Assembly (NCBI GenBank): GCA_000934665.2
Contig: JYFJ02004498.1
Location: 1-32,151, forward strand
Origin: Catajapyx aquilonaris
Lineage: Eukaryota
Direction: 5' to 3'
DNA length: 32,151 nucleotides
In this document: one piece after another, positions 2,193-30,604 of the stretch
Position numbering within the stretch: the first letter of the stretch is position 1
Layout: each line of letters begins with the position of its first letter
Notes under the pieces: model-generated
Seen by the model: only the letters and a program-made list of their open reading frames with translations
The model's database searches: none
Told to the model about the DNA's origin: nothing
Position numbers and translations under genes: made by a program

Positions 2193-3161
2193 TTTGTAAA
2201 AAAAAAAAAAAAAAAAACAGTTTTAGTCAACATTGGAAGTCATAATGACATTGAATTTGATATCTGAATATGCGTGTGTTACATCTCTGATGATCAGAGC
2301 ATAATCGTTCGTTCTCATCTTGATCATCGTTTATCTCGTTACCGGTTACCGCCTCGACATTACTCCTCCCTACATTTACGACTTGTTTTGGGCCAATGAG
2401 TGCATTGCCGGACTGAAGGGCGACTAGTAAGGGACACCCTGTATGCTATGCTGGGTTCTGCGCGTGCTGGATGGATTAACCACCAAGATATATTGTGGAT
2501 TTTGAATCAACAGCACATTCAACTGTCCATTTTACTCGCTTTTCATTCTGATACAATCATATTAACTCAATCCCGCTAAATCAGGGCTATTCAACTGGCG
2601 GACCGCGACGCAATTTTGTCCGGACCGCGACAATATACAGGACAGTTTGAAATAGCATGATAAATTACTAATTCATGATTTTTTTTTGGAAAAAGTGCTA
2701 CCAATTTCATCAAATACACACCCATTCAAATCTCCCACATCTCACCTAAGCTCGTGTGACCTTGAACCCCCCCCCAAGAAATTCCGCCTGCGGCGGGCTC
2801 GTTCCCCTCCTTTTACGGCTTGTTCACCTTGTGCTTACGAAATGGGCCCCCCTCCGAAATTCTTCTGCCTACGTGGCTGTACAGGACATCGTAAAGGCCG
2901 AAAATGTCTTCATATGCCCTGTCTTGATAGGGCCTTCTACCCTTGCTGCACACGTTTATATTTTCGAATATGAACCCTGTGTACGTGGTACCATCTGAAA
3001 AGTCCGGAATTCCGGAGTCGGAAAGTCCGGACCTTCAATGGCCCAGGAAAGGTAAATACTGGAGCTTGTCAGAAACTAGTTGAATACCCCTGCGCTAAAT
3101 GATCATTAGCACGCGGATTACGCACGTCACACCTCACGCACGATACTTTTGTTGCGCATGA
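2193..3161. mobile_element. Copy-A-specific ~970-bp intronic insertion (or deletion in copy B)
   Basis: Absent at the paralogous site ~11665-11675 (gttgttggggcctag); bounded by TTGGG on both sides (2188-2192, 3162-3166); starts with a poly-A run and contains a nested hAT MITE. Confidence 0.6.
2582..3092. mobile_element. Non-autonomous hAT (Charlie-like) MITE, 511 bp
   Basis: TIRs CAGGGCTATTCAACT / AGTTGAATACCCCTG (14/15 match); perfect 8-bp TSD CGCTAAAT at 2574-2581 and 3093-3100 with central TA. Confidence 0.9.
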
Positions 3162-6100
3162 TTGGGCCTGGTGCATTATTTTATCAGTGCACTAAAGCCG
3201 ACCAAAGTGGGTTTATTTCATTCATTTTCATAATGCCGGCACCTTGTATTCAAGGTCTTCTCTTTCACTTGTAGTGCACTTCTTGCTACTACTGTAACTA
3301 TACATGGGATTTTTGTGGAGACTTTGGAACTGTACCTATGCTCAGTACACAGTACATGCAGACTTACACTGTCTTTAATATTCATGGCTCGGTAGTTGTA
3401 AACGTAATAACCTTGCCTGTTTATTTTGTCCCGAAGAGTGCTCCTGACCAGCATGTGAACCACGCCACTCCTTCTCCTTTTGCTTCAGAAGGAGGGAGAG
3501 GGAAGGGTGGCCTAGTTCTTCTGCCCTATCTCCAGGGGTTATGCCATCCCAGTCTCTCCTATAGTTGGGTCAGCTCCTCTCTCCAGGAGGAGGTGGACTG
3601 TGGACGTATGACCATAACATGCAGCGATGTGCAGGAGGGTGAAACTCCACACACACACGTGGTCCACTTCCATACCCATGTCGAGAAGAAATTTGACCAC
3701 ATCGGAGTGACCCGCATAGGCAGCCCAGTCGATTCCACTATACTCTTCTACCCTCCTCTCCACGTCCACTCCCCTCCTGTCCACACTATCCTGTACATCC
3801 GACAAGCGACCTTCCTTGCAGGCGTCTATGTATTCGGATATGTCCAACTGAAACAGACGACAGGACACGACTAGGAGTAATAAACAATGCAAAGTAAGTA
3901 ATATGTGTGAAACTCCCTGTATATACAGTAAATCCACCTTTCGCATTCCATCCAGTAATGACATCACTTCTCTCTCAACAACCATGGATGCCAGACGTTG
4001 TGATGGATCAGGAAGAAGCATCTTCCTCAGGATCTCTGCTTCACTCGAGTTCAGTCGAAGAAAGTCCTCTGGGTATGGGTCCTGATTTCTGAGGAGTCCA
4101 AAGACACGTCTCCTCTCTGCCGCATCATCTCCAAAGGGATACAGAATTTCATAAAGGATGAGGCCAAGAGAAAACACGTCTGATTTGGACCCATACCCCT
4201 TTCCATCCAGCTGCTCGGGGGACATGTACATATGGGTCCCAACACCAGCCGTTTGTTCCTGTGAATTAGGGTTCTTGAAAGAGGATTCTTGACCCGACTG
4301 CTCCGTTTCATAGGCCTCGATCAAGGAGGTGCTGAGACCAAAGTCCCCTATTTTGATCTTCTTTCCGTCAAGAGTGAAGAGAATATTATGTGGCTTGAGA
4401 TCACGATGGATCATGCCTTTACTGTGGAGGAAGCAGACCCCTGACACGATCTGCTGGAAAATGGACAGTTTCGCGAACTTGCAAGACTTGAATCCCTCTT
4501 CCAGCCTGTGACCGAGAGTCTTCTCGTGGCATAACTCCATCTGGATGTAGAGCAGGTCCATGGTTGGTCCATAGACGGGAAGCGGTGCGGTAAAGTATTC
4601 AGAGGCCTCCTTACTCGCTTCTTGACCATTGGAAGTGGACATGTCGCAGTTGAGAAGTGAGGCGTCCCATTCCTTTTGGAGGTAGCGAGGCGGGTGTTCC
4701 TCCCAAGAGTGGTAGTATCTGACGATGTTCTCATGTTCAAGCACAACCAGTGCTCGGACCTCCCTCAGGATGATGTCCTTGTACTTTTGATCTGCAGGCA
4801 GCCGAACCCTCTTTACGGCGTAGATGGCCTTGGCTATGTTGTACTCTGCCTTAAACACATCTCCAAAGGACCCTCTTCCCAGCAGATCCAAGTGGGTGAA
4901 ATTCAACATGTACCATGATTGGAATGTACGAGTAGGCTGACCTCCAATCTCTTCTCCACCAGATCTGAACGCGACATGAAATTGTAATGAAATTATTAAC
5001 ACAATTATGTGCTGGCTCGTAAATGTTTAGGAACAGCCTATCCCTAAGGTAGATACGTATATTGAGTGTTGTGATGTTGCATGCACTCACCTGTACTGTC
5101 TGGCATGAGTTGAGTTCAAGTGACCCATGATGAATCGATGCACGTGTATGTGACCCTTGAGAAGAGCGAGTGAGGCGGGTGTGGCCTCCTTCTTGTCCAT
5201 CGCCTGGGGGTCACTCTTTCCTTCCACCAAGAGGATCCTGGCCACCTCCAGATGTCCAAACATGCAGGCCAAGTGAAGAGGGGTATGTCCGATGTGGATG
5301 GTGCAGGCTTCCACCGAGGCCCCTTTGTCCAGCAGGATTCTGCAAGTGTCAGTCAGGCCTCTTCTGGCAGACCAGTGAAGGGCTGTCCTTCCGTGGTCGT
5401 CCCTCGCGTCCACCTCCTCGTGTCCAATCCTGTCCAGAAGACACTTGCAGGTGTCCACCTTCCTGGCCCTACACGCGATCATCAGGGGGGTCTCCTGATA
5501 ATCGTTCCTCTTATTCACCTTCACTCCTTCTCCCAACAGTCTCCCGACGTCCTTATCTCTTCCGATGGCTGCCATGATGTGAATGTCCTGCTTAATCCCT
5601 AAGAGGAACGTGGTCATGAAACCTTGATCTTTCTTGACAGCCACTCCAACAGGCGTCATCTTCTCCCGATTATTTTCTTTGGGATCTGCCCCCCACTCCA
5701 AGAGAAGCCTCCCCGCAACGAGGTGTCCAAATTCCGCAGCTATGTGGAGACAGGTGTCTCCTGACCTGGTCTTCACCATTGGGTCGGCCCCTTCCTCCAG
5801 CAGGAAGCGACACACAGGCGGCCAGTTGTTCTCCGTCGCTTCGTGCAGAGCAGTCTTCTCTTGGTCAGTGGAGGCCCTATTGACCCTGGCCCCCCTCTTG
5901 ACCAGCTCCTGGCACACCTGCAGCCATCCCCGTCTGGAGGCCACCATCAGTGGGGTGACCCCATTCCTGCTCAGGGCGTCCACATTGTCCCCTCTGTCCA
6001 ACAGCTGCTTGACATTGGTCAGAGACCCATTCTCGGCTGCCCAGTGCATGTCTGCCAGACTTTTGTCCTCCGATGCCACTGGTGCTGCTGCCATATCCCT

Positions 6101-9372: not shown

Positions 9373-10679
9373 GGGCAATTCCACGTGAACGTGATCACCT
9401 TTTTCACGAAAAAATTTGCCCGTCGATGAGTGTGAGATATGTTTGAGTCCATGTCAAGTTATGACCTTTCCCGTAAGGATTTGGTCCGCCGATGCGTGGT
9501 TGCCTATCTACAGGCGTAAAATGTACTTTGATCACATTTACACGACAAGATGTAGTAAATGCTTGATATGATACAAGTTTCATGTGTGAAATTGTCTCCT
9601 CTTTTCGACAAAAATGCTAACTTCCTGATAGATGTGCAAATTCATGGCAAAAAGCGAGAATTTTGCAAACAAAGCAATTTTCAAAACGAGAGGCGAAGTT
9701 AAATACCATCAGTCATCACATTGATATCAAAAAATTCCTCATAGTGTATGTCCTCTATCAGCCATATACAAACGGAATTTTGGCATGCGCAAGGGTTACG
9801 GAGCTATAATCACTGACGTGGAGGGGTGCAGGAGTGCAATATATTCCATTATAGTGAAAGCAAGGGGCCCGTATATGGATCCGCACGGAATTCCGTACAG
9901 GCCTCAACCGTGAACATTCATTTGGACTGTGACTAGGAACGAATAGAAGAATGAATATAAAAATAAAAAGTAGGCTACATGTTTCTCTATTGTAAATAAT
10001 CAAGCATATTTTAACACACACTTGACACTTGTGAAAATTGAAACTGTGTTGAACATGACAAGGGAATTTTCATTTATTCTTACTATTCTATGGTAAATTT
10101 TTTTTGAACTATATTATTAAGTGAATTAAACACAAAGGACAAGCGTACACTATACCTGAGACATGAAGACGGACCTAGGTGGGCCGCTCATTTTCATTCA
10201 GCGGCGTGGCCACTAGCGCAACGATCCACGTCAGTACCTATAGCTCCGGAACCATTTCGTATTCCAAAATTCAGTTTGTACCACTGATAGAGGACACTGT
10301 GAGGTGTATTTGATATCAATATAATGCCATTTGACCTTGGCTCTCTTTTTGAAAATGTCATTTGTTTGCAGAAATGTCGCATTTTGACATGAATTTGCAC
10401 AGCTATCGGAAAGTGACTATTTTTGTCGGAAAGAGGAGACAATTTCACACATGAAACATGTATTACATCATGCATTTACGTTGTCATGTAAATGTAATAG
10501 GGGGGCGCCTCTAACCGTGATCCAAGTGCAATTAGCGCCTGTAGATAGGCAACCACGCATCGGCGGAACAAATCCTTATGGGAAAGGTCATAACTTGACA
10601 TGGACTCAAACATATCTCACACTCATCGACGGGCAAATTTTTTCGTGAAGAAGGTGATTACGTTCACGTGGAATTGCCC
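9373..10679. mobile_element. Non-autonomous DNA transposon with ~450-bp TIRs and TATA TSD
   Basis: Termini GGGCAATTCCACGTGAACGT / ACGTTCACGTGGAATTGCCC; inverted homology ~9373-9823 versus ~10225-10679; TATA at 9369-9372 and 10680-10683; empty site ctacTATAgctc at ~1177-1188 in unit A. Superfamily uncertain (Sola- or Kolobok-like). Confidence 0.92.
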
Positions 10680-10825
10680 TATAGCTACATCCAGCAGCTA
10701 TACAGAGGTCTCTATGTAAATTCCAAGCCAACATATCTGGAACCTAAAATCACCTCTAGCATGTGACAATTGTAATGCGTAATTAATAATCTTGTTAAGT
10801 AAATTGAAATCTGCCTGAGACAATA

Positions 10826-13800
10826 TCACCGCTTCTTCTTCCAAAACTTCCACCACTTGCCAGTTGCTGCCTGTTAAATTAATTGAAATTAATTTAATCC
10901 GCACTTACATGAAACATCTTCTCGGTTGATATGATCTATAAATGCATCTACAGTAGTTATTGGTGAAATATGTAAAACTTCCAAGACAGAGGCATTAAAA
11001 GGACTCACATTCAGATATTGCGCCACATCTTTGTGACCGCTCTCATTGGCCATGTCAGCTGGTGTTTCTCCATCCTTGTTCTTGGCCCTTGGATTGGCCC
11101 CTTTGGACACCAGGAACTGGACCATATCCAGGTGGCCATTCAATGCTGCCTCGTGAAGAGGGGTCTGATCACCCCGCCCCTTGACCTCCACCTCGACCCC
11201 TTTCTTCAGCAGGAGGTCAACCACTGCGAGGTGGCCTTCTGTAGAAGCCAAGTGGATGGGCTGGTATCCGTCCCTGCCCATAGCCTGCAGATTTGCGCCT
11301 CTTCTGATTAGGAGTAGACAGATGGAAGGGTGTCCACATTGGGATGCCACATGGAGGGGTGTCCATCCTCCAGCCCCTTCCTGGTCCACAGGCCACCCTT
11401 CCTCCAACAAGAGGGACACCACCTCTTCATGTCCACTTTTCACTGACAGGTGCAATCCACCAAACCCATCCTCCCCAACCTCCCCCAACAGTCCCCCCAC
11501 TCCTCCCATCCTCCCAACCACCCCCCTCACCTCCTCCAACCTGCCCTCGTCGCAGGCTGACAGAAACAGCCTCACCTGAAAATGAGGAACATCAGTCATG
11601 GAAATAGTAGTACGCCGACGCGTAAAAGACTAAAGGCAATCGTTACAACTTCCTGTGTCTGGGTTGTTGGGGCCTAGTGCATTATTATATCAGTGCACTA
11701 AAGCCGACTAAAGCGGATTTATTTCATTCATTTTCATAATGCCGGCACCTTGTATTCAAGGTCCTCTCTTTCACTTGTAGTGCACCTCTTGCTACTACTG
11801 TAACTACATGTGATTTTTGTGTAGACTTGGTACTGTACACAGTACAATCAGACTTACACTGTCTGTAATAATCACGGGTCGTGGTTGTAAATGTAGACTT
11901 GCCTGTTTGTTTTGTCCAGAAGAGTGGTCCTGACCAGCGTGTGAATCACGCCACTCCATCTCCTTTTGATTCAGAAGGAGGGAGAGTGAAGAGTGGCCTT
12001 CGTCTTCTGCCCTTTCTCCAGGAGTCATGCCATCGAAGTCTCTCCTGGTTGGGTCTGCTCCTCTCTCCAGGAGGAGGAGGACTGTGACCATATGACCACA
12101 ACCTGCAGCTATGTGCAGGAGGCTGATATTCCACAAACCCACGTGGTCCACTTCCACACCCCTGTCGAGAAGAAATTTGACCACATCGAAGTGACCCTCC
12201 ATGGCAGCCCAGTCGATTCCTCTAATCGCTTCTACCCTCCTCTCCACGTCCACGCCTCTCCTGTCCACACTATCCTGTACATCCGACAATCGACCTTCCT
12301 TGCAGGCGTCCATGTATTCGGATATGTCCAACTGAAACATACAAGACACGACCAGGAGTCAGAAACAACGCCAAGTAAGTAATATGTGTCATGCTCCCTG
12401 TATAAACCCACCCTTCGCATTCTATCCAGTAATGACATGTCGACTTCTTTCTCAACAGCCATGGATGCCAGACGTTGTGATGGATCAGGGAGAAGCATCT
12501 TCCTCAGGATCTCTGCTTCACTCGAGTGCAGTCGAAGAAAGTCCTCTGGGTATGGGTCCTGATTTCTGAGGAGGCCAAAGACACGTCTCCTCTCTGCCTT
12601 ATCATCTCCAAAGGGATGCAGAATTTCATACAGGATGAGGCCAAGAGAAAACACGTCTGATTTAGACCCATACTCCTTTCCTTCCAGTTGCTCGGGGGAC
12701 ATGTACATTTTGGTCCCAACACCAGCCGTTTGTTCCTGTGAATTAGGGTTACCACCTGAAGAGGAATCTTGACCCAACTGCTCCTCTTCACAAGCCTCAA
12801 TCAAGGTGGTGCTGAGACCAAGGTCCCCTATTCTGATCTTATTTCCATCCAGAGTGAAGAGAATATTATGTGGCTTGAGATCCCGATGGATCATGCTTTT
12901 ACTGTGGAGGAAGCAGACCCCTGACACGATCTGCTGGAAGAGGGACAGTTTCGCGAACTTGCAAGACTTGAATCCCTCTTCGAGCCTGTGACCGAGAGTC
13001 TTCTCGTGGCATAACTCCATCTGGATGTAGAGCATGTCCATGGTTGGTCCATAGACAAGCATAGGTGCGGTGAAATATTCAGAGGCCTCCTTACTCGCTT
13101 CTTGACCATTGGAAGTGGACATGTCGTACAGAAGGAGAGATGCGTCCCATTCCTTTTGGAGGTAGCGAGGAGGGTGTTCCTCCCAAGAGTGGTAGTACCT
13201 GACGATGTTCTCATGTTCGAGCACAACCAGGGCTCGGACCTCCCTCAGGATGATGTCCTTGTACTTTTGATCTGCAGGCAGCCGAACCCTCTTTACGGCG
13301 TAGATGGCCTTGGCTATGTTGTACTCTGCCTTAAACACATCTCCAAAGGACCCTCTTCCCAGCAGATCCAAGTGGGTGAAATTCAACATGTACCATGATT
13401 GGAATGTACGAGTAGGCTGACCTCCGACCTCTTCTCCACCAGATCTGAATGCGACATGAAATTGAAATGAAATTATTAGCACAATAATGTGCTGGATCGT
13501 AAATGTTTAGGAAGAGCCTATCCCTAAGGTATATTGAGTGTTGTGGTGTTGCATGCACTCACCTGTCCTGACTGGCATGAATTGAGTTCAAGTGACCCAT
13601 GATGAATCCATACACGTGTCTGTGACCCTTGAGAAGAGCGAGTGAGGCGGGTGTGGCCTCCTTCTTGTCTATCGCCTGGGGGTCGCTCTTTCCCTCCACC
13701 AAGAGCAACCTGGCCACCTCTAGATGACCAAACATGCAGGCCAAGTGCAGAGGAGTATGTCCGATGTGGATGGTACAGGCTTCCACCGAGGCTCCTTTGT

Positions 13801-14569
13801 CCAGCAGGATTCTGCAAGTGTCAGCCAGGCCGCTTCTGGCAGACCAGTGAAGGGCTGTCCTTCCGTGGTCGTCCTTCGCGTCCACCTCCTCGTGTCCAAT
13901 CCTGTCCAGAAGGCACTTGCAGATGTCCACCTTCCTGGCCCTACACGCGATCATCAGGGGGGTCTCCTGATAATCGTTCCTCTTATTCACCTTCACTCCT
14001 TCTCCCAACAATCTCCCGACGTCCTCATCTCTTCCGATGGCTGCCATGATGTGAATGTCCTGCTGAATCCCTAAGAGGAACGTGGTCATGAAACCTTGAT
14101 CTTTCTTGACAGCCACTCCAACAGGCGTCATCTTCTCCCGATTATTTTCTTTGGGATCTGCCCCCCACTCCAAGAGAAGCCTCCCCGCAACGAGGTGTCC
14201 AAATTCCGCAGCTATGTGGAGACAGGTGTCTCCTGACCTGGTCTTCACCATTGGGTCGGCCCCTTCCTCCAGCAGGAAGCGACACACAGGCGGCCAGTTG
14301 TTCTCCGTCGCTTCGTGCAGGGCAGTCTTCTCTTGGTTAGTGGAGGCCAGATTGACCCTGGCCCCCCTCTTGACCAGCTCCTGGCACACCTGAAGCCATC
14401 CCCGTCTGGAGGCCACCATCAGTGGGGTGACCCCATTCCTGCTCAGGGCGTCCACATTGTCCCCTCTGCCCAACAAGAGCTGGACAGTGGTCAGAGACCC
14501 ATTCTCGGCTGCCCAATGCAACTCTGCCAGGCTCTTGTCCTCCGCTGCCACTGCTGGTGCTGCTGCCAT
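10826..14569 (-). CDS. Ankyrin - PERK-like eIF2-alpha kinase - ankyrin protein with C-terminal KWWKFWKKKR tail, copy B (1026 aa)
   Basis: Exons 14569-13563 (about 9-10 ANK), 13444-12412 (kinase), 12331-11903 (ANK, GC donor CAG|GCAAGT), 11575-11009 (ANK), 10870-10826 (AATGKWWKFWKKKR*); total 3081 nt, all phases compatible. ATG in gccATGg context just after a splice acceptor. eIF2aK motifs HENIVRYYHSWEE, insert, LYIQMELC, HRDLKPHN, DLG, TAGVGTKMYMSPEQ, KSDVFSLGLILYEIL. Confidence 0.85.
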
Positions 14570-15803
14570 GGCGAATCCCTGCAAAGTGCAGTATCAGTAC
14601 CATATAGTTAGAATATTGCAAGTAGCCCTACAGATTGGCAGTATCAAATGCCTGATAAGTAGGTCTACGCCACCGTACAGAGGACTCAAAAGCGGGCAGG
14701 CTTATGTCGTCTGGATCTCTGCGAAGAAAAAGGACGTGATAAGCAGGTTTTTCCTATATTGCCAGCCATTATCTGAAAATGAGGTGACGTATATACCGAT
14801 ATCTGTGAACGGGCAAAAATAGTTGCCCTATGCGCTGCTCGAGTAAGATTAATACAAGATGAATAAGGTGCCATAGAGGTGACCTGGGAAAGAGTTATGA
14901 ATATGATACCAGTGTAGGTGCTAAATCACAGTGATTCACTTTGCGTAACAATGTGGTGTGACATTTCAAATGAAATCTTTTAAAAACATTTATCACAACA
15001 AACCACTCCACAAACCCTGAATGTCACATCATCCGTATATTATGATTATTATGACTGTAATTGTTATGTAATTATCCATGGCATTTTCTCTGCAAGAAGT
15101 AATGAACTTCGACCCCAGTTATGAGTGCAATATGACCCACATTGAATGAAAACTTCACATCTCATTTCTTCACTCTCAGATACAAGACGAAATTAGCGTC
15201 CTTAACATGCGATTTACCTTATATAATCTTGATCAAACCTTTCCGCTTGTCCGACACATTAAAAGATTCCTTGGTCACAAATTTACTAGACTCTTTTCCA
15301 GCCAGAAGATACTTTCCTTCGTGCCCAAAGGAAGCTTCCATTGGTTGTGCAAATACGTGGAAGGTACGGTATACGTGTACGAAACACATCATGAAAATGA
15401 TCGCACCCATCTTGCATTGTTTCTCAGGTGATATCTTACCTCCGATGTGTAAATGCAATGTGTTTCACTGTACAGTTGTCCACCCCACAGAGGAATCGTC
15501 CTAACAGGCCTGTGTCGTCTGGATCACTGCGTAGAAAAGGATGTGATAAGAAGGCCCTTTCCTCTATCTATCCCCAGCAGTTATCTGAAAATGAAGTATA
15601 CCGATATCTATCTCAAAAATAGATTCTTTGCGCTGCTCAAATGAAATCAATAAGGTGCTACAGGTGCTATAGAAAGATTTGTGAAAATGATACAAGAGTC
15701 GGTGCTAAATTACAAATTAATATCTACTAATTCTTTTATTATAATAATGCTTTTTTAATGCGTCGTTGTCGTTGTCGTTTATTGTATCTACAGTATTTTA
15801 GAA

Positions 15804-17156: not shown

Positions 17157-17194
17157 TATAAAGTCACGGGGAAGTCACTGTGATGGCCGTCAGT
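17157..17194 (+). promoter_or_regulatory. Candidate core promoter of ANK1 (TATA box + arthropod-type Inr)
   Basis: TATAAAG at 17157 and TCAGT at 17190; spacing slightly long. Confidence 0.35.
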
Positions 17195-18688
17195 GAATAT
17201 GAGTCTCCCTCATGCTGGAGCAGAAGAAGAACCAGCTCCACGCCCATGTGTCCAATCAAGAGGATTCGACGAAACAAGCCGAATAAGGGTGTCTCTGAAG
17301 CTGATTCGATCCAGCTTCCCAGCTCTGGTCCAGACACGAGTCAAATCTTGCTGGACAAAATGGCCGACCAGTTCAGAAGAAGCGTGTATCGCAGGACACC
17401 TCGAGGGTCCATCGCAGCAGAGAGCGTCCAGTCGGTGTCCATACTTCTGGAGAACAAAGAACAGGTGTTGGATGATCATCCACCTTGTCAAGACGACACT
17501 GCAAAACATGCCAAAAAGGTAACGCTTATTCCAACAATACACTAGTTGGTGTTCGGTGCTGTTAATTCATGGAACCAAATGTATATCTTCAGGTGGCTAA
17601 ATTTCTCACTGCCTGCAAGGAAGGCCGGTTGCAGGAAGCACAGGGTGTTGTTGAAGGAATGGGAGGTGTTGGACAGCTGTTTGAAGAAGAGGACAAGGAC
17701 GGATGGAGTGGACTTCACCTGGCGGCCAAAAGAGCTAAGGATGATGTGGTGTCCTTTTTGTTGAAGGAAGGGTGGCCTGCGAATCAGGAAGATGCTGTGG
17801 GGGACACTCCTCTTCAGCTGGCAGCCTGCTGTGGTCATCTAACGACCTGCGCTGTGCTGATCCGAGAAGGTGCCAAGGTTGGATCAAGGGACGCGGATGG
17901 AGACGAACCCATTCATTGTGCATCATCCGGAGGTCACCTCGCTGTGGTTGACCTCCTGCTGCAACAAGGGGCCAGGTTGGAGGTCAGGGGAATGAAAGAT
18001 TGGACACCTCTTCACAAAGCAGCGTTCAATGGTCATCTAGAGCTTGTCCAGTACCTGATGTCACGAGGAGCCAATCCGGATGCCAGGGACCAGTTTGGAC
18101 AATCACCATTGGATATCGCAGAGGAAGAGGGCAATACAGAAGTGGCCCGAATTTTGACTGTGAGTGCATTTCCGGTTTCATGAACGTAAAGTAAGCAAAT
18201 TCTACAATTAGCTACAAGCAATACGATAAAATTGTAAAATTTTGCGACACACAAAAAATAAGCAATATTGTTTGATGTCACAATAATGAGAGTTGTTCTC
18301 TTAGTTTGAATTGCTATGACAGACTGGCAGTAGGCCTAATTATTACGTCATCACTACACTCTTAACCACTCTTAACACTATTGAAAAGAGACCCTTTTTA
18401 CCCTCTATTTTATAAGGTAATACATGCAAAAGTTACCTTCTAATAAAGTTACCCTCTAATCTCTAATGTAAGGTAAAAAATTGCCACTTTCTTACCCTGT
18501 ATTTTTACCTTCCACATTTATACCTTATATCGTAGGGGAATCAGGACCCACATTTTACCTTACATTTTCTTACCCTTTATACCTGTAATTACCCTCCTTT
18601 TTACCTTTGCTGTGATTTTTTCTTGCAGAAAGAAGTACGGAAGAGGAGACATTACAAGTGGTGGGAGTTTTGGAGAAGATGGCAGTGA
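17183..18688 (+). CDS. Ankyrin-repeat protein ANK1 with KWWEFWRRWQ tail (~320 aa)
   Basis: Exons 17183-17518 (AAG|GTAACG), 17593-18159 (567-nt ANK module), 18629-18688 (KEVRKRRHYKWWEFWRRWQ*), all phase 0. Start could instead be ATG 17246 (MCPIKR). Confidence 0.82.
18355..18610. repeat. Degenerate TTACC(T/C)T-rich repeat, probable DNA-transposon remnant in ANK1 intron 2
   Basis: Many TTACCTT/TTACCCT motifs plus inverted TAAGGTAA copies; no clear TSD. Confidence 0.35.
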
Positions 18689-19498
18689 CTGTAACCTAAC
18701 TTAAGACAATTTAGCTTATAATCTATTATAAGATTGATAACAGACCACCTTGTGACAAAATAGTGAGATTTTTTTGGTACCTGATTGGTTTGTGCACAGT
18801 TCTGTGACAATGAAAGTGCTTCCAAATGGATTGTTTGTCACTTAACTGTCTTCAGTTGGAATATACACAAGTGACTTGCACACTCCATTAGGCTATATAA
18901 TTACATTAAAAAATAAAAATGGCAACTAAATGATAAGTGCCTAAAATGGCAAGACAAAGAAGTTGTTCCAGTTCCAGTCCATACGTTGTGTTTGTATGAT
19001 ATCATGTGAACAAATAGATGCAAATTTTCGCTATTCCTGACAAAGTCAGATGGAAACCAAATTTTCTATCACAGATTCGGGTTTTGCGAAAATTTCAAAT
19101 TACAATTATCAATTTTCTAAAACTTTCCAATTTTAAATCACGACAGGAGGCGCAAGGAAAGTTAGCCAATGTTTGTAAACAATGTCCCAGCGTGACTAAT
19201 TTTTTGAGATGACAACTGTTTATTAAAACTCTGCTCAATTCTTCTGGTAATCATAGTTAAAAGAAGCTTCCCTGATAAGCAATGCCCGTTTCCAAGGTGA
19301 TGTCCAGTTCTTGATGAGATAAAACACGCCTTAGGGTATCGCCTTTTGCAGGCTATCGCTGTCGCAACATCAGTCTTGAGAGAAGTGCCAAGCTTTTACC
19401 AGAGGTAGAATTAATGTACTTATCTCGCACAGTTTCGCAAACAGTCAGAAGTGAAGTGGTCGAGTCACCTCTAAGGGCATACTGCAACTAGGCTGGGA

Positions 19499-22153
19499 AT
19501 GTCCATATGTAAGGGTATATGTTGCGGATTATGCTGCTACAACTCCGATGGAGATGACAGCAGTGAGTCGACACAATTCTTTCCTAGACGCAACCAGGAG
19601 GTAGGTGGATAGCAAGGCACCTCTAATAATAAGTGACAACAGAAGTTATCTCTGCAGGAAGAGGAACTTCATACTCTTGGGCCCTGGCAGCAGAATTCTA
19701 GGAGAAGAAACAAAAAGGCAAGGCAATAATATTTGTTTAGCACAAGTAGATGCTAAATATGGTTATAAGTCAGTATTATCAGGTTAGGTTAAGTTTGGTC
19801 TGTTACATTAAGCCCCTGATTAAGATGCCCTGGATAGGCTCAGGTGTCAAGATTCTTGTCTGCATGCGAAAGGGGTCGACTGGATGAAGTTCGAGAAAAT
19901 GTTAATGAAATGGGAGGTGTTGCACAGATGTTGAGGGAGGAGGGCAACTGCTGGAGTGGACTTCACCTGGCAGCAAAAGGAGCTAAGGACGAAGTGGTGT
20001 CATTTCTGTTGAGTGAAGGATGGCCTGCAAACCAGGAAGATGTTGGGAAAGACACACCTCTTCACATGGCAGCTTCATACGGTCACGCGACGACATGTGA
20101 AATTCTGATCCAAGGAGGAGCCAACATTCGGGCAAAGGACAAAGACGGTGACCAGCCCATCCACAGCGCTTCGTCTGAAGGCCGTCAAGAAGTGGTTGAC
20201 CTTCTTCTACATCATGGGGCCAGGATGGAAGCGAAGGGAATGATGGATTGGACACCACTTCACAAAGCGGCGTTCAAAGGTCACTCGGAACTTGTCCAGC
20301 ATCTGGTATCAAAAGGAGCCAAAGCAAGGGCCAAAGACGAGGAAGGACGCACACCAGATGACCTCGCCACAGATAGAGGTCACTCAGCCTTAGCCCGATA
20401 TTTGAAAGTGAGTACGCTAAGGATAGCTTCTGTCATTTTGGTCATTGTACGTATGACAAAATAATACTATTGTTACTGGCCACTCAGAGGGTCATCGCAC
20501 CGTCTCCCTGACCGCCAATTTCCTTTACCGCCAACACACATTTTCCTTTACCGCCAAAAGTCTTGACCGCCAATTTCCTTTACCGCCAACACACATTTTC
20601 CTTTACCGCCAAAAGTCCTGACCGCCAATTTCCTTTACCGCCAACGCACATTTTCCTTTACCGCCAAAAGTCCTGACCGCCAATTTCCTTTACCGCCAAC
20701 GCACATTTTCCTTTACCGCCAAAAGTCCTGACCGCCAATTTCCTTTACCGCCAACGCACATTTTCCTTTACCGCCAAAAGTCCTGACCGCCAATTTCCTT
20801 TACCGCCAACGCACATTTTCCTTTACCGCCAAAAGTCCTGACCGCCAATTTCCTTTACCGCCAACGCACATTTTCCTTTACCGCCAAAAGTCCTGACCGC
20901 CAATTTCCTTTACCGCCAACGCACATTTTCCTTTACCGCCAAAAGTCCTGACCGCCAATTTCCTTTACCGCCAACGCACATTTTCCTTTACCGCCAAAAG
21001 TCCTGACCGCCAATTTCCTTTACCGCCAACGCACATTTTCCTTTACCGCCAAAAGTCCTGACCGCCAATTTCCTTTACCGCCAACGCACATTTTCCTTTA
21101 CCGCCAAAAGTCCTGACCGCCAATTTCCTTTACCGCCAACGCACATTTTCCTTTACCGCCAAAAGTCCTGACCGCCAATTTCCTTTACCGCCAACGCACA
21201 TTTTCCTTTACCGCCAAAAGTCCTGACCGCCAATTTCCTTTGCCGCCAAACTGAACAGGGCTCCAAATCCGGTTATTTTAGTAGGGTGCCAACTGGGTCG
21301 CCTGCCTGACCGCCAAAATTCTTTTCCGCCAATAATAGTATAACCTAAGGTTTGTCTGAAATATGTGAGCATACTGCCTATGGTCAGGTGTCAAGATTCT
21401 TGTATGCCTGCAAAAAGGGTCGACTGGAGGAAGTTCGAAAAATAGTTGAGAAGATGGGAGGTGTGAGAAGTCTATTGGAAGAGCATGAAAAAGGTCGGAG
21501 TGGACTTCACCTGGCAGCACAAGGAGCGAAGGATGATGTGGTGTCCTTTCTGATTAGCAAAGCATGGCCTGTGAACCACGAAGATCGTCTACGAGACACA
21601 CCTCTTCAGTTGGCTGCTTCAGACGGTCACATGGAGACATGTAAACTTCTGATCCAAGGAGGAGCCAACATTCGGGCAAAGGACAAAGACGGTGACCAGC
21701 CCATCCACAACGCAGCATCTTTCGGCCATCAAAATGTGGTGGGCCTTCTTTTGCAGCACGGGGCGTTGCTGGAAGCAAAGGGGATGAGGGAAAGGACTCC
21801 ACTTCACAAGGCGGCATTTAACGGTCACAGGGACCTTGTCGACTATCTGGTATGGAAAGGAGCAAAACTGGGGTCCAAAGACGAGGATGGTCGCACACCT
21901 GCTGAACTTTCCGAGGAAGAGGACTACCATGAAGTAGAAGAATATTTGAAAGTGAGTCCGCTTTCTCAGTTCTGGGTCAATCTAACCAATGCTGGATGGA
22001 TGACCTACCATCCTTATTCATTTGAGAAAGTGTTGAATTGATCCCGTCTCATCTGAGGGTAAATGCACATTTCTCTTGCAGGAAGCCGACTTGGAGCAGA
22101 ATCCTGTCGATTGCACATCGTATTTGAAAAAGAAGCTCCGAAGAACGCTCTGA
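19499..22153 (+). CDS. Ankyrin-repeat protein ANK2/3 with Cys-rich N-terminus and two tandem ANK modules (~453 aa)
   Basis: Exons 19499-19600 (MSICKGICCGLCCYNSD...QE|GTAGGT), 19658-19717 (...RRRNKK|GCAAGG), 19844-20407, 21388-21951 (both 564 nt, phase 0), 22082-22153 (EADLEQNPVDCTSYLKKKLRRTL*). Joining the two modules in one gene is inferred. Confidence 0.72.
20508..21250. repeat. 55-bp minisatellite, ~13.5 near-identical copies
   Basis: Unit ctgaccgccaatttcctttaccgccaacgcacattttcctttaccgccaaaagtc with three ACCGCCAA cores; no unique spacers. Confidence 0.97.
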
Positions 22154-22394
22154 AAATTTGGAGAAAAAATGTGACCCTCGAGATGACCGAGACTTTGAAC
22201 TGACAGTCTTCACTAGAAAGGCGTCATAATTTTCTCGCTATCATGGTGATTCTAATGATAACGTAGTGCGTCCTTCGCATGTCTATCACCAGTTCCTGTC
22301 CTTATCTATACAGAGACGTGGCAAATATGTACCTGAACACACATATCACAAGTCAGATCCGTACAGCAAGTATCCTTGGTCGCATGTGGGGAAT

Positions 22395-23446
22395 ATGTTT
22401 TGTTGCGGAAACAAATCGAGCGAGAGTGTCGCAGAATCGCAGAGCTGCAATGAGTGGTCCATTGTGGATGATTCTGCTGGAGAGAAGCTGGAGACACCAG
22501 TCGGACGGAAAGATTCGTCCATATGTAGCCAAAGTGAAAGCACAGCAGCATCTACCATGTTGGAACTGGAGGAAGAAGAGACGGCGCGTTATCGTGAAAT
22601 TCAGAAGACTCGAGAAGAAAAAGCCAAAAAGGCAAGTACTTATTCAGAAAAAATGGACCCATAATATAAACACTACCATTGCAGTTGGCAAGATTTCTCA
22701 TCGCCTGCCAAGAGGGTCGGTTACAAGAGGTGCAAGAGGTAGTGAATGGACTAGATGGGCTGGATGATCTGCTAGGGCTTGCGAACCACGCAGGATTGGA
22801 TGGGCTTCATTTGACGGCGAAGAAAGGGCATGACCGTGTGGTGTCCTTTCTGTTGAGCGAAGGGTGGCCTGCAAATCAGGAGGATGCTGTGGGGGACACT
22901 CCTCTTCAGCTGGCAGCCTACTGTGGTCATCTGACCACATGCGCTGTGCTGATCCGAGAAGGAGCCAAAGTTGGGTCAAAGGACGTGGACGGGGATGAGC
23001 CCATCCATAACGCGTCGTCTGGAGGTCACCTCTCAGTGGTTGACCTCCTTCTGAAACAAGGGGCCAGGTTGGAGGTCAGGGGAATGAGGGACCGGACGCC
23101 TCTTCACAAGGCAGCATTCAATGGTCATCTGGAGTTGGTACAATTTCTGTTGTCCAAAGGGGCCAATCCAGGGGCCAGGGACCGATTTGACCATACACCA
23201 GGTGACCTTGCCAAGGAAGAGGGAGAGACAGAAGTGGCACGAATATTGAAAGTGAGTCCTCTGGACATCCTTACATACATCACGTACTGTGCAGCTGTTT
23301 TGTATTTTTATATTTTATTACTGTGCAATTTATTCCATTTATTTTTAAATTACTCATGAGAAGCAATTATTCCTTCCTCGTTGCAGAAAGCCTTGAAGAA
23401 GGAGGCGACTCGCAAGTGGTGGCAGTTCTGGAAGCGATGGAGTTGA
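22395..23446 (+). CDS. Ankyrin-repeat protein ANK4, MFCCG N-terminus and KWWQFWKRWS tail (~287 aa)
   Basis: Exons 22395-22631 (…EEKAKK|GCAAGT), 22685-23251 (567-nt ANK module), 23387-23446 (KALKKEATRKWWQFWKRWS*), all phase 0. Confidence 0.8.
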
Positions 23447-28042: not shown

Positions 28043-29062
28043 TCAATGTGATTCAGGGTCCATAATGGGCGTGTACAGCAGGTCGTGTTTATCGCAGTGT
28101 CTCTTCATAAGTCGAAACACGATTCGGGTCACAAAGTTCAGCAGGGTCACCAGAGGTCCGACCCGACACAGCACCTGGGTCACGAACCGGATGACCGCAA
28201 AATGAGTCTTGGCCACCCAGGACACGTGTCCTTCCAGTTTCCGTTCGACCTCTGAAAATCCGTACGACCAGAAGGTGAACAGGGCAACAGCGTCGAAGTT
28301 GATGGCCGTACGCAGTACCACCGATGCGTCACCAACACTGGACAGCACCATCCTCCAGTGGTACTCGTGCTCTTTAGAGAACCTTCTCATCTGGGGCAGG
28401 AACACCTTGTCCTGTACGTCCAAGCACACGGACCTGATTTCGGACATGGTACCGGACAGTGGGTTGTACCGGTCCTGCACTCCCATGTGGTAGCACAGCA
28501 CTCTCCAGACGTACACGTAATCCGCAATGTCCTGCTCCGATGCACCGTGTATACCGACTCTCTCAGGGTACAGCACCACAGGAATGAGTAGTAAGAACGC
28601 GGTAATCGCCAGGTCCAGCTGGCTCATGTGTACTCCGCTGTACTGTACGGCAGGACATTCCGATTCGATATAACCTGCCAGTCTACACTCATCGGCAATG
28701 TCAGGCAATTTCGTCTCAATCGTGGCAACGTCGACCTTTGACCTGTCCCGGTTGGCGATGCGACCCACCTCGTGATGCTTGACCTGCAGGTGCTTCATGC
28801 TCCGGTACGCGTTGTCGTTCGGATTCCAAAGGTCGCCCAGCAACATCGTTGTCATGTGCACCGCAGTGCTGAATATGAGCCTTCGAAGTGTGGTCAGCGT
28901 CTCGGACTTTCTGATGTACATGACCGCTTGAAAGGGCGGCTGCCACAGGTACACGTTACCCAGAGGTACTATTGTGCCCAGCAACATACCGAAGAGGTGT
29001 CTCCGCACAAAGTCCTGTCCCCTCCTGTACCTCTCCTTGTCCAACCACACAGGAGCTGGTAC
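28043..29062 (-). CDS. mpaB / rubber-oxygenase (DUF2236-like) family protein, intronless, 5' end damaged or unresolved
   Basis: PxWLDKERYRRGQDF, RR..ST..H, SQLDL..T, YVWRVLCYHMGVQDRYNP match the animal mpaB/Lcp-like family pattern; no in-frame ATG upstream of the conserved WxD motif before a stop at ~29126. Confidence 0.7.
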   Translation of the reverse strand, partial: VPAPVWLDKERYRRGQDFVRRHLFGMLLGTIVPLGNVYLWQPPFQAVMYIRKSETLTTLRRLIFSTAVHMTTMLLGDLWNPNDNAYRSMKHLQVKHHEVGRIANRDRSKVDVATIETKLPDIADECRLAGYIESECPAVQYSGVHMSQLDLAITAFLLLIPVVLYPERVGIHGASEQDIADYVYVWRVLCYHMGVQDRYNPLSGTMSEIRSVCLDVQDKVFLPQMRRFSKEHEYHWRMVLSSVGDASVVLRTAINFDAVALFTFWSYGFSEVERKLEGHVSWVAKTHFAVIRFVTQVLCRVGPLVTLLNFVTRIVFRLMKRHCDKHDLLYTPIMDPESH

Positions 29063-29234
29063 CGTACGACACCACCAACTCCTGTACCCTGAGAGAGTCG
29101 GTATACACGGTGCATCGAAGCACTTTTACCTTTACGAGCGTATTAGATACCAATATTTAATTGTCATTATAAAATAAATTATTGAAACACTTTGTTACTT
29201 TTAGCAATATTTTTATTTCACATCAAAAAAAAGG

Positions 29235-30154
29235 CTAGCTGCTACACATTCCTTTGTGGACGATGTACAGACCTGAAGAGAAACATTTCGTTATTAATAT
29301 TGCATTGTTGAGTGCGACATATGACCAAGTCAGGGAGCATATACTACATAAGAGGCGCAAACATTCGATTTCCGCGTCTCTCTGTTTGCGGCGCTGCCAA
29401 GGCTGGCGGCCATTTTGAAGTGTGGGCAACGCCAACGAGGTATAAATAGGGTACAGGCAAAAATAGGGTCTGCCATCTTTGATGGTCTTGCCTTTCTTGC
29501 CATGTAGTTGCCATGGCCGCCACAATCATCAAAGATGGCGGACCATATTTTTGCATGTACCCTATTTATACCTCGTTGGCGTTCCACACACTTCAAAATG
29601 GCCGCCAGCCTTGGCAACGACCCAAACAGAGAGACTCGAACATCAAAGGCGCCGACACAAGTTTGCGCCTCTTATGTAGTATATGCTCCCTGATATGACC
29701 AAGTCGTACTGGTGGCGCCACGAGCCGATTCACTGGCGGCAAAAGAGAAAATTGAAGAGTAGTGTTGGTTGCTAATTCATCTCTTCGACTCGCTCTTTTT
29801 CCTCCAATGCAATGGCTCATTGAGGCACCAGTACGACATGTGGATTTAAAGATTATAAGGATTTAAGTAGAATCTTATGGGATTGTCATAAGGATTTATG
29901 GCCAAGAGTGTTCGCCGGATTTACATAAGTTTAGTTGTTACTCCATCGTACTTACTCTTATTGCACTTTCTGGCGCACCGGAATAGGCACTTGTTGCTGT
30001 AGGTTTTCCCATCCGAAGCACAAACAGGCTTGTAATCCTTTGTGCAGGGACAACTCTGGCATGGCCCCTCATCATCCGGGTAGCCGTACGCGCATGCGCA
30101 GACCAGCATCAGAACCACTGCGCAGGTCAGAAGAAAGGTCCGTTTGGAAGACAT
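29235..30154 (-). CDS. Secreted Kazal-type protease inhibitor 3 (78 aa), predicted P1 Lys
   Basis: Exons 30154-29956 and 29272-29235 (phase 1); signal peptide, CPCTKDYKPVCASDGKTYSNKCLFRCA...HKGMC; TATATAAA at 30216-30209. Confidence 0.92.
29331..29692. mobile_element. 362-bp foldback MITE with 12-bp TSD in Kazal 3 intron
   Basis: 32-bp perfect TIR CAGGGAGCATATACTACATAAGAGGCGCAAAC plus ~95-bp internal inverted arms; ATATGACCAAGT at 29319-29330 and 29693-29704. Confidence 0.92.
29703..29837. mobile_element. 135-bp hairpin element (old MITE candidate)
   Basis: GTCGTACTGGTG...AAAAGAG / CTCTTTT...CACCAGTACGAC, ~45-bp imperfect inverted arms. Confidence 0.6.
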
Positions 30155-30604
30155 CTTTGCTTCAGCAATGTATGAAGAGTAAACGTACCTTCTTGGATTA
30201 ATCAGGCCTTTATATACCCCCATAACGCACGTACAATTGGAGCGCGTGTTAATGAGCGTTGTTGTGATAACGCAAGCGGGACGTGTCTAACGACGCAATT
30301 TCAGGTGCGTTGGAATTGCCGACGTGACATCTTTACAAAGGAATCACGTACCGGTACAGTATACAGTAGATATGTTATCTTCATGCAGTTTGGGTTGTAA
30401 TAATGCTGGACAAAAAATAAATTGAGCAATATGTGTTAAGCAAAGTTTCATTACAACATTTGAAATTTTTATTACATGATGTACTGTAGTTGAACAATAC
30501 TGTAACAAGATCATTCCAAAACAAAAGGCTGTTTAATGCGATAGTGAAGAGAATTTAAATGAATAAAGGTGACATTTGAAGGTGACGGGCGAGCAATGTG
30601 ACAA

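Follow-up and report, generated by a model that had tools for sequence, protein, structure and literature searches.

Does an arthropod genome encode a kinase of the eIF2-alpha kinase family that lies between arrays of ankyrin (ANK) repeats, and would such a kinase still act on eIF2-alpha? The question is raised by a locus of Catajapyx aquilonaris (assembly GCA_000934665.2, contig JYFJ02004498.1, positions 1-32,151 of the forward strand; this whole stretch of 32,151 nucleotides (nt) is hereafter called the window), for which a first-pass annotation had proposed a cytosolic, ANK-flanked, PERK-like kinase present in two copies. According to our analysis, the locus of copy 2 is real and probably functional, and it lies in a cluster of ankyrin genes that share a cassette. 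We consider the chances to be evenly balanced that copy 2 is an intact gene of five exons whose product, a cytosolic protein with 1026 residues, is arranged as ANK array, kinase, ANK repeats, ankyrin cassette, and Trp/Lys tail, and that this protein works as in the model given below. By sequence comparison, the kinase domain belongs to the eIF2-alpha kinase family, is catalytically complete, and is nearest to PERK by similarity.

Gene model and domain layout of copy 2

Four long minus-strand frames (13559-14593, 12232-13506, 11804-12358, and 10889-11629) appear in the open reading frame list of the window. When the five predicted minus-strand exons (Table 1) were joined by script, the coding sequence comprised 3081 nt, or 1026 codons, with a sole, terminal stop, and the phases were compatible at all four junctions, both by reading the strand and by script. 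The positions, phases, and length of the coding sequence thus agree with the original proposal that four frames and a 45-nt exon splice in frame. Exon 1 starts with the ATG at 14569 in a GCCATGG context and ends at the donor AG/GTGAGT (a slash marks the splice site). Exon 2 lies between an AG acceptor and a GTGGGT donor, exon 3 between the acceptor cag/TTGG and the donor CAG/GCAAGT, and exon 4 between an AG acceptor and a GTGAGT donor, and exon 5 follows the acceptor aacag/GCA. The exon 1 donor is 118 nt upstream of the kinase exon, in matching phase. No ATG precedes the conserved N-terminal segment of the kinase exon (which aligns to SRY/F-x-DF of other family members), and this exon therefore depends on a coding exon upstream. 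The junction between exons 1 and 2, which joins the ANK array to the kinase, is very likely to be correct, and that between exons 2 and 3, which joins the kinase to the following ANK repeats, is predicted with still higher confidence; the junction between exons 3 and 4 is reasonably likely.

Repeats were counted by eye on the translations, which gave approximately 10 ANK repeats ahead of the kinase and approximately 3-4 plus 6 behind it. Together with the Pfam matches, these counts agree with the order of ANK repeats, kinase, ANK repeats, and Trp/Lys tail read at first. A hydrophobicity scan of the copy 2 protein showed neither a signal peptide nor a membrane segment, in line with the cytosolic location proposed for it; the sole 19-residue window with a value above 1.6 (1.88) sits within an ankyrin repeat of exon 3.

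We searched for the same layout in other organisms. In three word-index searches, in which the kinase exon was compared with longer proteins and with proteins of near length and the kinase-plus-ANK frame of copy 1 with proteins of near length, none of the 120 matches listed for each search carried an ANK Pfam accession, and identity among the matches listed was at most 47%. An exhaustive search of representative sequences gave at most 51% identity among the best 150 matches, and a Pfam scan of 39 of these 150 found no ANK family. A phmmer comparison of the three ANK blocks of the window with 467 fetched proteins of the eIF2-kinase family recovered the positive control and gave no match at E values up to 10. 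A metagenome scan yielded five loci (31-45% identity), and tblastn found no ANK in any of them. Only generic ANK-kinase clusters were matched in the ESM Atlas, and the N-terminal ANK array matched only generic ankyrin and DARPin entries of the PDB, with RNase L absent from the best 60. No description of an ankyrin-bearing eIF2-alpha kinase was found in the literature covered, which excluded subscription journals, and the word "ankyrin" does not occur in PMC11305385 or PMC5851622, which both treat how the family evolved. The absence of such a kinase from the literature searched, and of ANK from the 467 relatives and the five metagenome loci, accords with the novelty claimed at first pass. Since identity was at most 51% in all matches, the lineage is poorly sampled, and the absence of the layout elsewhere is weakly established; to that limited extent, the lack of a relative sharing it in another organism among these searches speaks against our reading. 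Judged from the sequences compared, the domain layout of the locus is new for its kinase family, which is itself known and in which domain swapping has precedent.

Affiliation of the kinase and its probable substrate

In a PDB sequence search with the kinase exon, PERK was the best match (9.1e-54 for 3qd2, followed by 3.9e-53 and 3.1e-51), and GCN2 (2.3e-47), HRI (9.7e-39), and PKR (1.5e-37) were also matched. The eIF2-alpha kinases spanned 9e-54 to 2e-33, whereas the first kinase outside this family appeared at 9e-23. Both copies contain GRGSFG, AVK, the Glu in REV, HRDLKPHN, QTAGVGT, the activation-loop Thr, and YMSPEQ; copy 2 has DLG where copy 1 has DFG. LYIQMELC and the activation-segment signature of the family (a Thr upstream of G-T-x-x-Y-M-S/A-P-E) are present, and the invariant columns are retained. 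An AlphaFold2 model of the kinase, built from 37 aligned sequences, had a mean predicted local distance difference test score of 84.9 and a predicted template modeling score of 0.84. The N-lobe insert is present but short, with approximately 40 residues (approximately 93-133 of the kinase exon), and was modeled at lower confidence (block means 61-75). A Foldseek search with this model returned PERK as the top 12 matches and then GCN2 and PKR.

For the phylogeny, we built a careful tree of 42 rows, all from the eIF2-alpha kinase family and without an outgroup from another kinase family; 19 unlabeled and 10 labeled rows (redundant or long-branched) were left out. GCN2 and HRI were placed opposite a group of PERK, PKR, and the two window kinases (99/96). 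Within this group, PERK and the GTPase-fused kinases of Daphnia formed a clade (98/98) and PKR formed another (96/94), and the window pair lay outside both, as sister to PERK with a support of 76/26. Forcing the window pair among arthropod PERKs cost 14.6 log units, which is borderline in the approximately unbiased test (p-AU 0.048), whereas a tree holding the window kinases together with PKR as a group was not rejected (p-AU 0.774). A quick tree of 71 rows had nested the window kinases among the PERKs with a support of 86; this nesting was discarded as unreliable, as a PKR-constrained tree was better by 9.56 log-likelihood units.

The first-pass assignment of the motifs to the eIF2-alpha kinase type is therefore borne out by the PDB matches, and the tree of PERK, PKR, HRI, and GCN2 places the pair within the PERK/PKR group. 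Closeness to PERK holds for sequence and fold and fails for the tree. The idea that a PERK kinase domain was recruited under ankyrin sensors is not supported in that form, because the PERK clade (98/98) leaves the pair out and the sister position to PERK is weak. From its sequence, the window kinase is thus best described as a member of the PERK/PKR supergroup that evolves fast and is not orthologous to PERK. It would represent a third lineage of old origin or, alternatively, a duplicate of PERK that has evolved very fast.

Whether this kinase phosphorylates eIF2-alpha is a separate matter, and here the evidence is divided. Several observations weigh against an eIF2-alpha kinase in function. 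The column of PKR Thr487 holds Asp in both copies, compared with Thr in 34 and Ser in 1 of the 35 relatives in a 37-row alignment, and a one-residue insertion found in none of the 35 relatives lies right behind this Asp. PMC11556786 counts Thr487 in the small set of sites under high constraint in the PKR kinase domain and states that this residue stabilizes helix alpha-G and is required to induce the conformational change of eIF2-alpha. In the careful tree, the stem of the window pair measures 2.44 changes per column, and so long a branch is consistent with a change of function. These observations, along with the position outside the PERK clade, would be explained if the locus encoded an active ANK-flanked kinase that phosphorylates a substrate other than eIF2-alpha and is not a sensor of the integrated stress response. 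We regard this alternative as somewhat unlikely. The equivalent of Glu480 is preserved, as are YMSPEQ, LYIQMELC, and the activation-loop Thr, and the nearest folds found by Foldseek are all eIF2-alpha kinases. In addition, the kinase model retains a helix at 282-293 immediately behind the Asp at the Thr487 position; Asp is a common helix N-cap residue and could for this reason assume the stabilizing role of Thr487. Taken from the sequence, phosphorylation of eIF2-alpha Ser51 by the window kinase has roughly even odds. If the kinase has changed its substrate, it would represent a new signaling kinase born out of a stress-response family.

Transcript structure, shared cassettes, and working model

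All the junctions of copy 2 are predictions, and the locus might instead consist of several transcription units: a kinase gene that stops after exon 3 (or comprises the ANK array and kinase only), with exons 4 and 5 as a separate ankyrin-tail gene, or exon 1 as a stand-alone ankyrin gene. Exon 1 could indeed close as an open reading frame of its own, as its frame meets a TGA inside the donor, but the kinase exon would then lack a start codon in front of its conserved N-terminal part. The exon 3 donor has GC rather than GT, and an in-frame GT donor is found 45 nt further on (11858/11857); CAG/GCAAGT is, however, the usual form of a GC donor. Intron 3 contains an AATAAA, from which a shorter isoform stopping after exon 3 might arise, and when exon 3 is read on past its donor, the frame ends at 11804. 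An ATG located 24 nt upstream of exon 4 in copy 2 reads in frame across the acceptor, but it is missing from copy 1, and no ATG-to-donor mini-exon was seen in intron 3 of copy 2. Separate genes would also suit the small size of the neighboring cassette genes and the 972 extra bases between exons 3 and 4 of copy 1. By contrast, all six homologous cassette exons of the window start at acceptors and so each requires an upstream exon. Exon 4 would accordingly be internal, because its neighboring homologues all start behind an acceptor and the cassette of one of them (gene A) is preceded by a coding first exon. The phases, moreover, agree at every junction in both copies. A search for sequencing runs listed no RNA run and one run of unstated kind (share 0.23); short contigs of the latter were mapped to 10600-14800, and none bridged a proposed intron; 8 of the 18 pieces, of 134-377 letters, were inspected. 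Two contigs of the same run end at 11902 and 12332, at most 1 base from the exon 3 borders, and were not counted as evidence. On balance, we consider a division into several transcription units improbable.

Copy 1 is a tandem duplicate with approximately 92% identity to copy 2, introns included. The first-pass statement that the junctions are conserved in both copies is correct for the splice sites, all eight of which are preserved in copy 1 by script check, but not for the reading frame: a 2-bp insertion in exon 3 of copy 1 shifts the frame into a TAA, and its joined coding sequence of 3074 nt has its first stop at codon 780. From its sequence, copy 1 is taken to be a recent duplicate with a frame broken in exon 3. 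As the copies are so similar, the junctions that they have in common count as weak evidence of splicing. Intron 2 of copy 1 (90 nt) is open, and the kinase and the next ankyrin block form a single frame of 495 residues there. The extra bases in intron 3 of copy 1 (2193-3164, relative to copy 2) have no second copy within the window; this insertion, possibly a retroposed element, has a plus-strand poly(A) run at its start. Intron 4 (10871-11008 in copy 2 and 1380-1517 in copy 1) differs by 3% between the copies and exon 5 by 0%, compared with 6-15% for the other introns, a pattern consistent with local gene conversion or a conserved element.

The six ankyrin cassettes of the window, of 188-189 codons, align with one gap column (in B and C); each begins behind an acceptor and ends before GTGAGT. 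Gene A has an unrelated first exon of 112 codons, in which a Pfam scan found no domain. Exons 4 and 5 are a shuffled 3' cassette that neighboring genes carry behind unrelated first exons. The ratio of nonsynonymous to synonymous divergence (dN/dS, or omega) between copies 1 and 2 was 0.48 for exon 1, 0.34 for the kinase exon, 1.33 for exon 3 (over the 94 codons preceding the frameshift), and 0.87 for exon 4. With the repeat register anchored at the TPLH motif, positions 2, 3, 5, 13, 14, and 33 of each repeat were defined as surface, after the convention of designed ankyrin binders, in which these six are randomized. In the exon 4 cassette, 14 of the 29 surface positions differed between the copies, compared with 21 of the 126 framework positions (Fisher p 0.0006). 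Surface dN (0.313) against the exon-wide dS (0.137) gave an omega of approximately 2.3 (rough Fisher p 0.018 from rounded counts), compared with 0.62 for the framework, whereas the N-terminal array had values of 0.52 for the surface and 0.36 for the framework; the omega estimates come from two sequences, one of them frame-broken, and several tests were run. Across all six cassettes, the mean pairwise difference was 0.67 at surface and 0.36 at framework positions (p 6e-7). The sparing of the framework argues that, over most of the period after the duplication, selection maintained the fold of both cassettes. The substitution pattern hints at a recognition role for the cassette, although the surface positions of ANK repeats are loosely constrained anyway.

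It is very improbable that the two loci are a decaying pair of which neither gives a working protein: the frameshift of copy 1 with its stop at codon 780, the dN/dS values of exons 3 and 4, and the lack of a relative of the same architecture in the databases searched would suit decay, but copy 2 is open across 1026 codons, the kinase and the N-terminal array have dN/dS values of 0.34-0.48, the cassette differences avoid the framework, unlike random decay, and the tail exon is the same in both copies.

This tail exon is identical in all 45 of its 45 nt. The neighboring tails end in KWWEFWRRWQ (18629-18688) and KWWQFWKRWS (23381-23446), and all four tails of the window contain KWWxFW followed by two basic residues, each Lys or Arg. 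Polybasic and Trp-rich membrane-binding peptides offer an analogy, and such a basic-aromatic C-terminus would be expected of a peripheral membrane anchor. A search for a CaaX tail exon downstream of exon 4 in both copies gave no credible candidate.

Our working model for the five-exon gene is as follows. The conserved N-terminal ankyrin array would hold or regulate the kinase, the variable C-terminal cassette would bind a changing protein target, and the basic-aromatic tail would tether the protein to the surface of a membrane. Binding of a target would gather kinase domains, which would phosphorylate each other's activation-loop threonine. Once active, the kinase would phosphorylate its substrate; if the specificity of the family is retained, this would be Ser51 of eIF2-alpha, and translation would be shut down. 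The sequence shows the domains, the motifs, the family placement, the sharing of cassettes, and the pattern of substitutions, and from these we infer one transcript, a membrane role for the tail, activation by clustering, the substrate, and any defense role. A bolder form of the model seems doubtful at present, namely, that the locus represents a family of innate immune receptor kinases of arthropods that are tethered to membranes. Their hypervariable ankyrin cassettes, exchanged among genes by exon shuffling and evolving in an arms race, would recognize pathogen proteins directly where PKR senses double-stranded RNA, and their eIF2-kinase-type domain would stop translation. If true, the family would correspond to PKR in invertebrates but would read proteins instead of nucleic acids. 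To our knowledge, PKR is not found in animals outside jawed vertebrates, and the coupling of pathogen sensing to translation arrest in invertebrates is therefore largely open.

Table 1 Predicted features of the window (coordinates on the forward strand; minus-strand features are given in reading direction, except for the two open frames in the last rows)
Feature	Position	Strand	Content
Copy 2 exon 1	14569-13563	-	Start ATG and N-terminal array of ~10 ANK repeats; Pfam Ank_2 2.1e-56, 7 Ank stretches
Copy 2 exon 2	13444-12412	-	Short linker and complete kinase domain of the eIF2-alpha kinase family with short insert; Pkinase 1.8e-47
Copy 2 exon 3	12331-11903	-	3-4 ANK repeats and polar linker; Pfam Ank 5.1e-12
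Copy 2 exon 4	11575-11009	-	567-nt ankyrin cassette, ~6 repeats; Pfam Ank_2 2e-46
Copy 2 exon 5	10870-10826	-	45 nt, 14-codon Trp/Lys tail AATGKWWKFWKKKR, ends TGA
Copy 1	6094-1335; exons 6094-5091, 4964-3938, 3847-3417, 2084-1518, 1379-1335	-	Tandem duplicate of copy 2
Gene A	17184-18688; first exon 17184-17519, cassette exon 17593-18159, tail exon 18629-18688	+	First exon of 112 codons, cassette of 567 nt, Trp/Arg tail; Pfam Ank_2 2.8e-57
Cassette exons B, C, D	19844-20407, 21388-21951, 22685-23251	+	AG before and GTGAGT after each; one gene or three
Further tail exon	23381-23446	+	Tail peptide; with gene A and cassettes B, C, D forms the cluster of 17184-23446
Open frame	28043-29125	-	360 residues; no Pfam match at E 0.01
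Small open frame	29921-30286	-	Hydrophobic N-terminal stretch and Kazal-type protease-inhibitor domain (PF00050, 4.6e-10)

Comparison with known systems

Ankyrin repeats and a kinase fold are combined in several known proteins. RNase L, ILK, and TNNI3K are among them, and RNase L, with about nine ANK repeats and a kinase-like domain, is an antiviral enzyme that blocks translation. By language-model features, the nearest named clusters are those of ANKK1/RIPK4, DAPK1, and TEX14, which share the combination of ANK repeats and a kinase fold with the window protein. Their kinases, however, come from other families (RIPK/TKL or CAMK type), whereas that of the window is of the eIF2-kinase type, and the best 60 PDB matches list the eIF2-alpha kinases first, followed by CDPK, SIK, LIMK, and NEK, with none of these ankyrin-kinase proteins among them.

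Three Daphnia proteins named "eIF2-alpha kinase 3-like" (P0082, P0098, and P0099 in our set) resemble the window protein in being PERK-type kinases, here of a crustacean, that lack the luminal domain and have a foreign domain attached. They comprise approximately 625-635 residues with an N-terminal kinase and, in precomputed annotation, Ras/Arf-type domains (PF00071, PF00025, and PF08477), and they form a 100/100 clade within the PERK group. They carry a small-GTPase domain and no ankyrin repeats. Their sequences suggest another crustacean rewiring of a PERK-type kinase.

PERK (EIF2AK3) itself is nearest to the window kinase by sequence and fold and has the catalytic, YMSPEQ, and LYIQMELC-type motifs in common with it. 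It differs in having a signal peptide, a luminal beta-propeller, and one membrane span, in place of which Pfam finds ankyrin arrays in the window protein; the relatives of PERK carry PF13360/PF13570, whereas the window protein shows ANK families alone before the kinase. The insert of the window kinase is also much shorter than that of PERK, and the kinase falls outside the PERK clade and has Asp at the Thr487 position.

The closest parallel in design is provided by PKR and PKZ (EIF2AK2), in which, as in the predicted window protein, a cytosolic domain of the eIF2-kinase family lies under a swapped-in sensor. In PMC11305385, PKR is argued to have arisen from a pre-existing EIF2AK that gained double-stranded RNA-binding domains (dsRBDs), and PKZ to have arisen by their replacement with Z-alpha domains. 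Whereas dsRBD or Z-alpha domains are the sensors of PKR and PKZ, a Pfam scan of the window protein gave no dsrm or z-alpha match, and its candidate sensors are the ankyrin repeats on both sides of the kinase. If the placing of an eIF2-kinase-family domain under ankyrin arrays holds, it would add a fifth type of sensor arrangement to the family and, after PKR and PKZ, provide the second natural example of a stress or immune sensor built by domain swapping.

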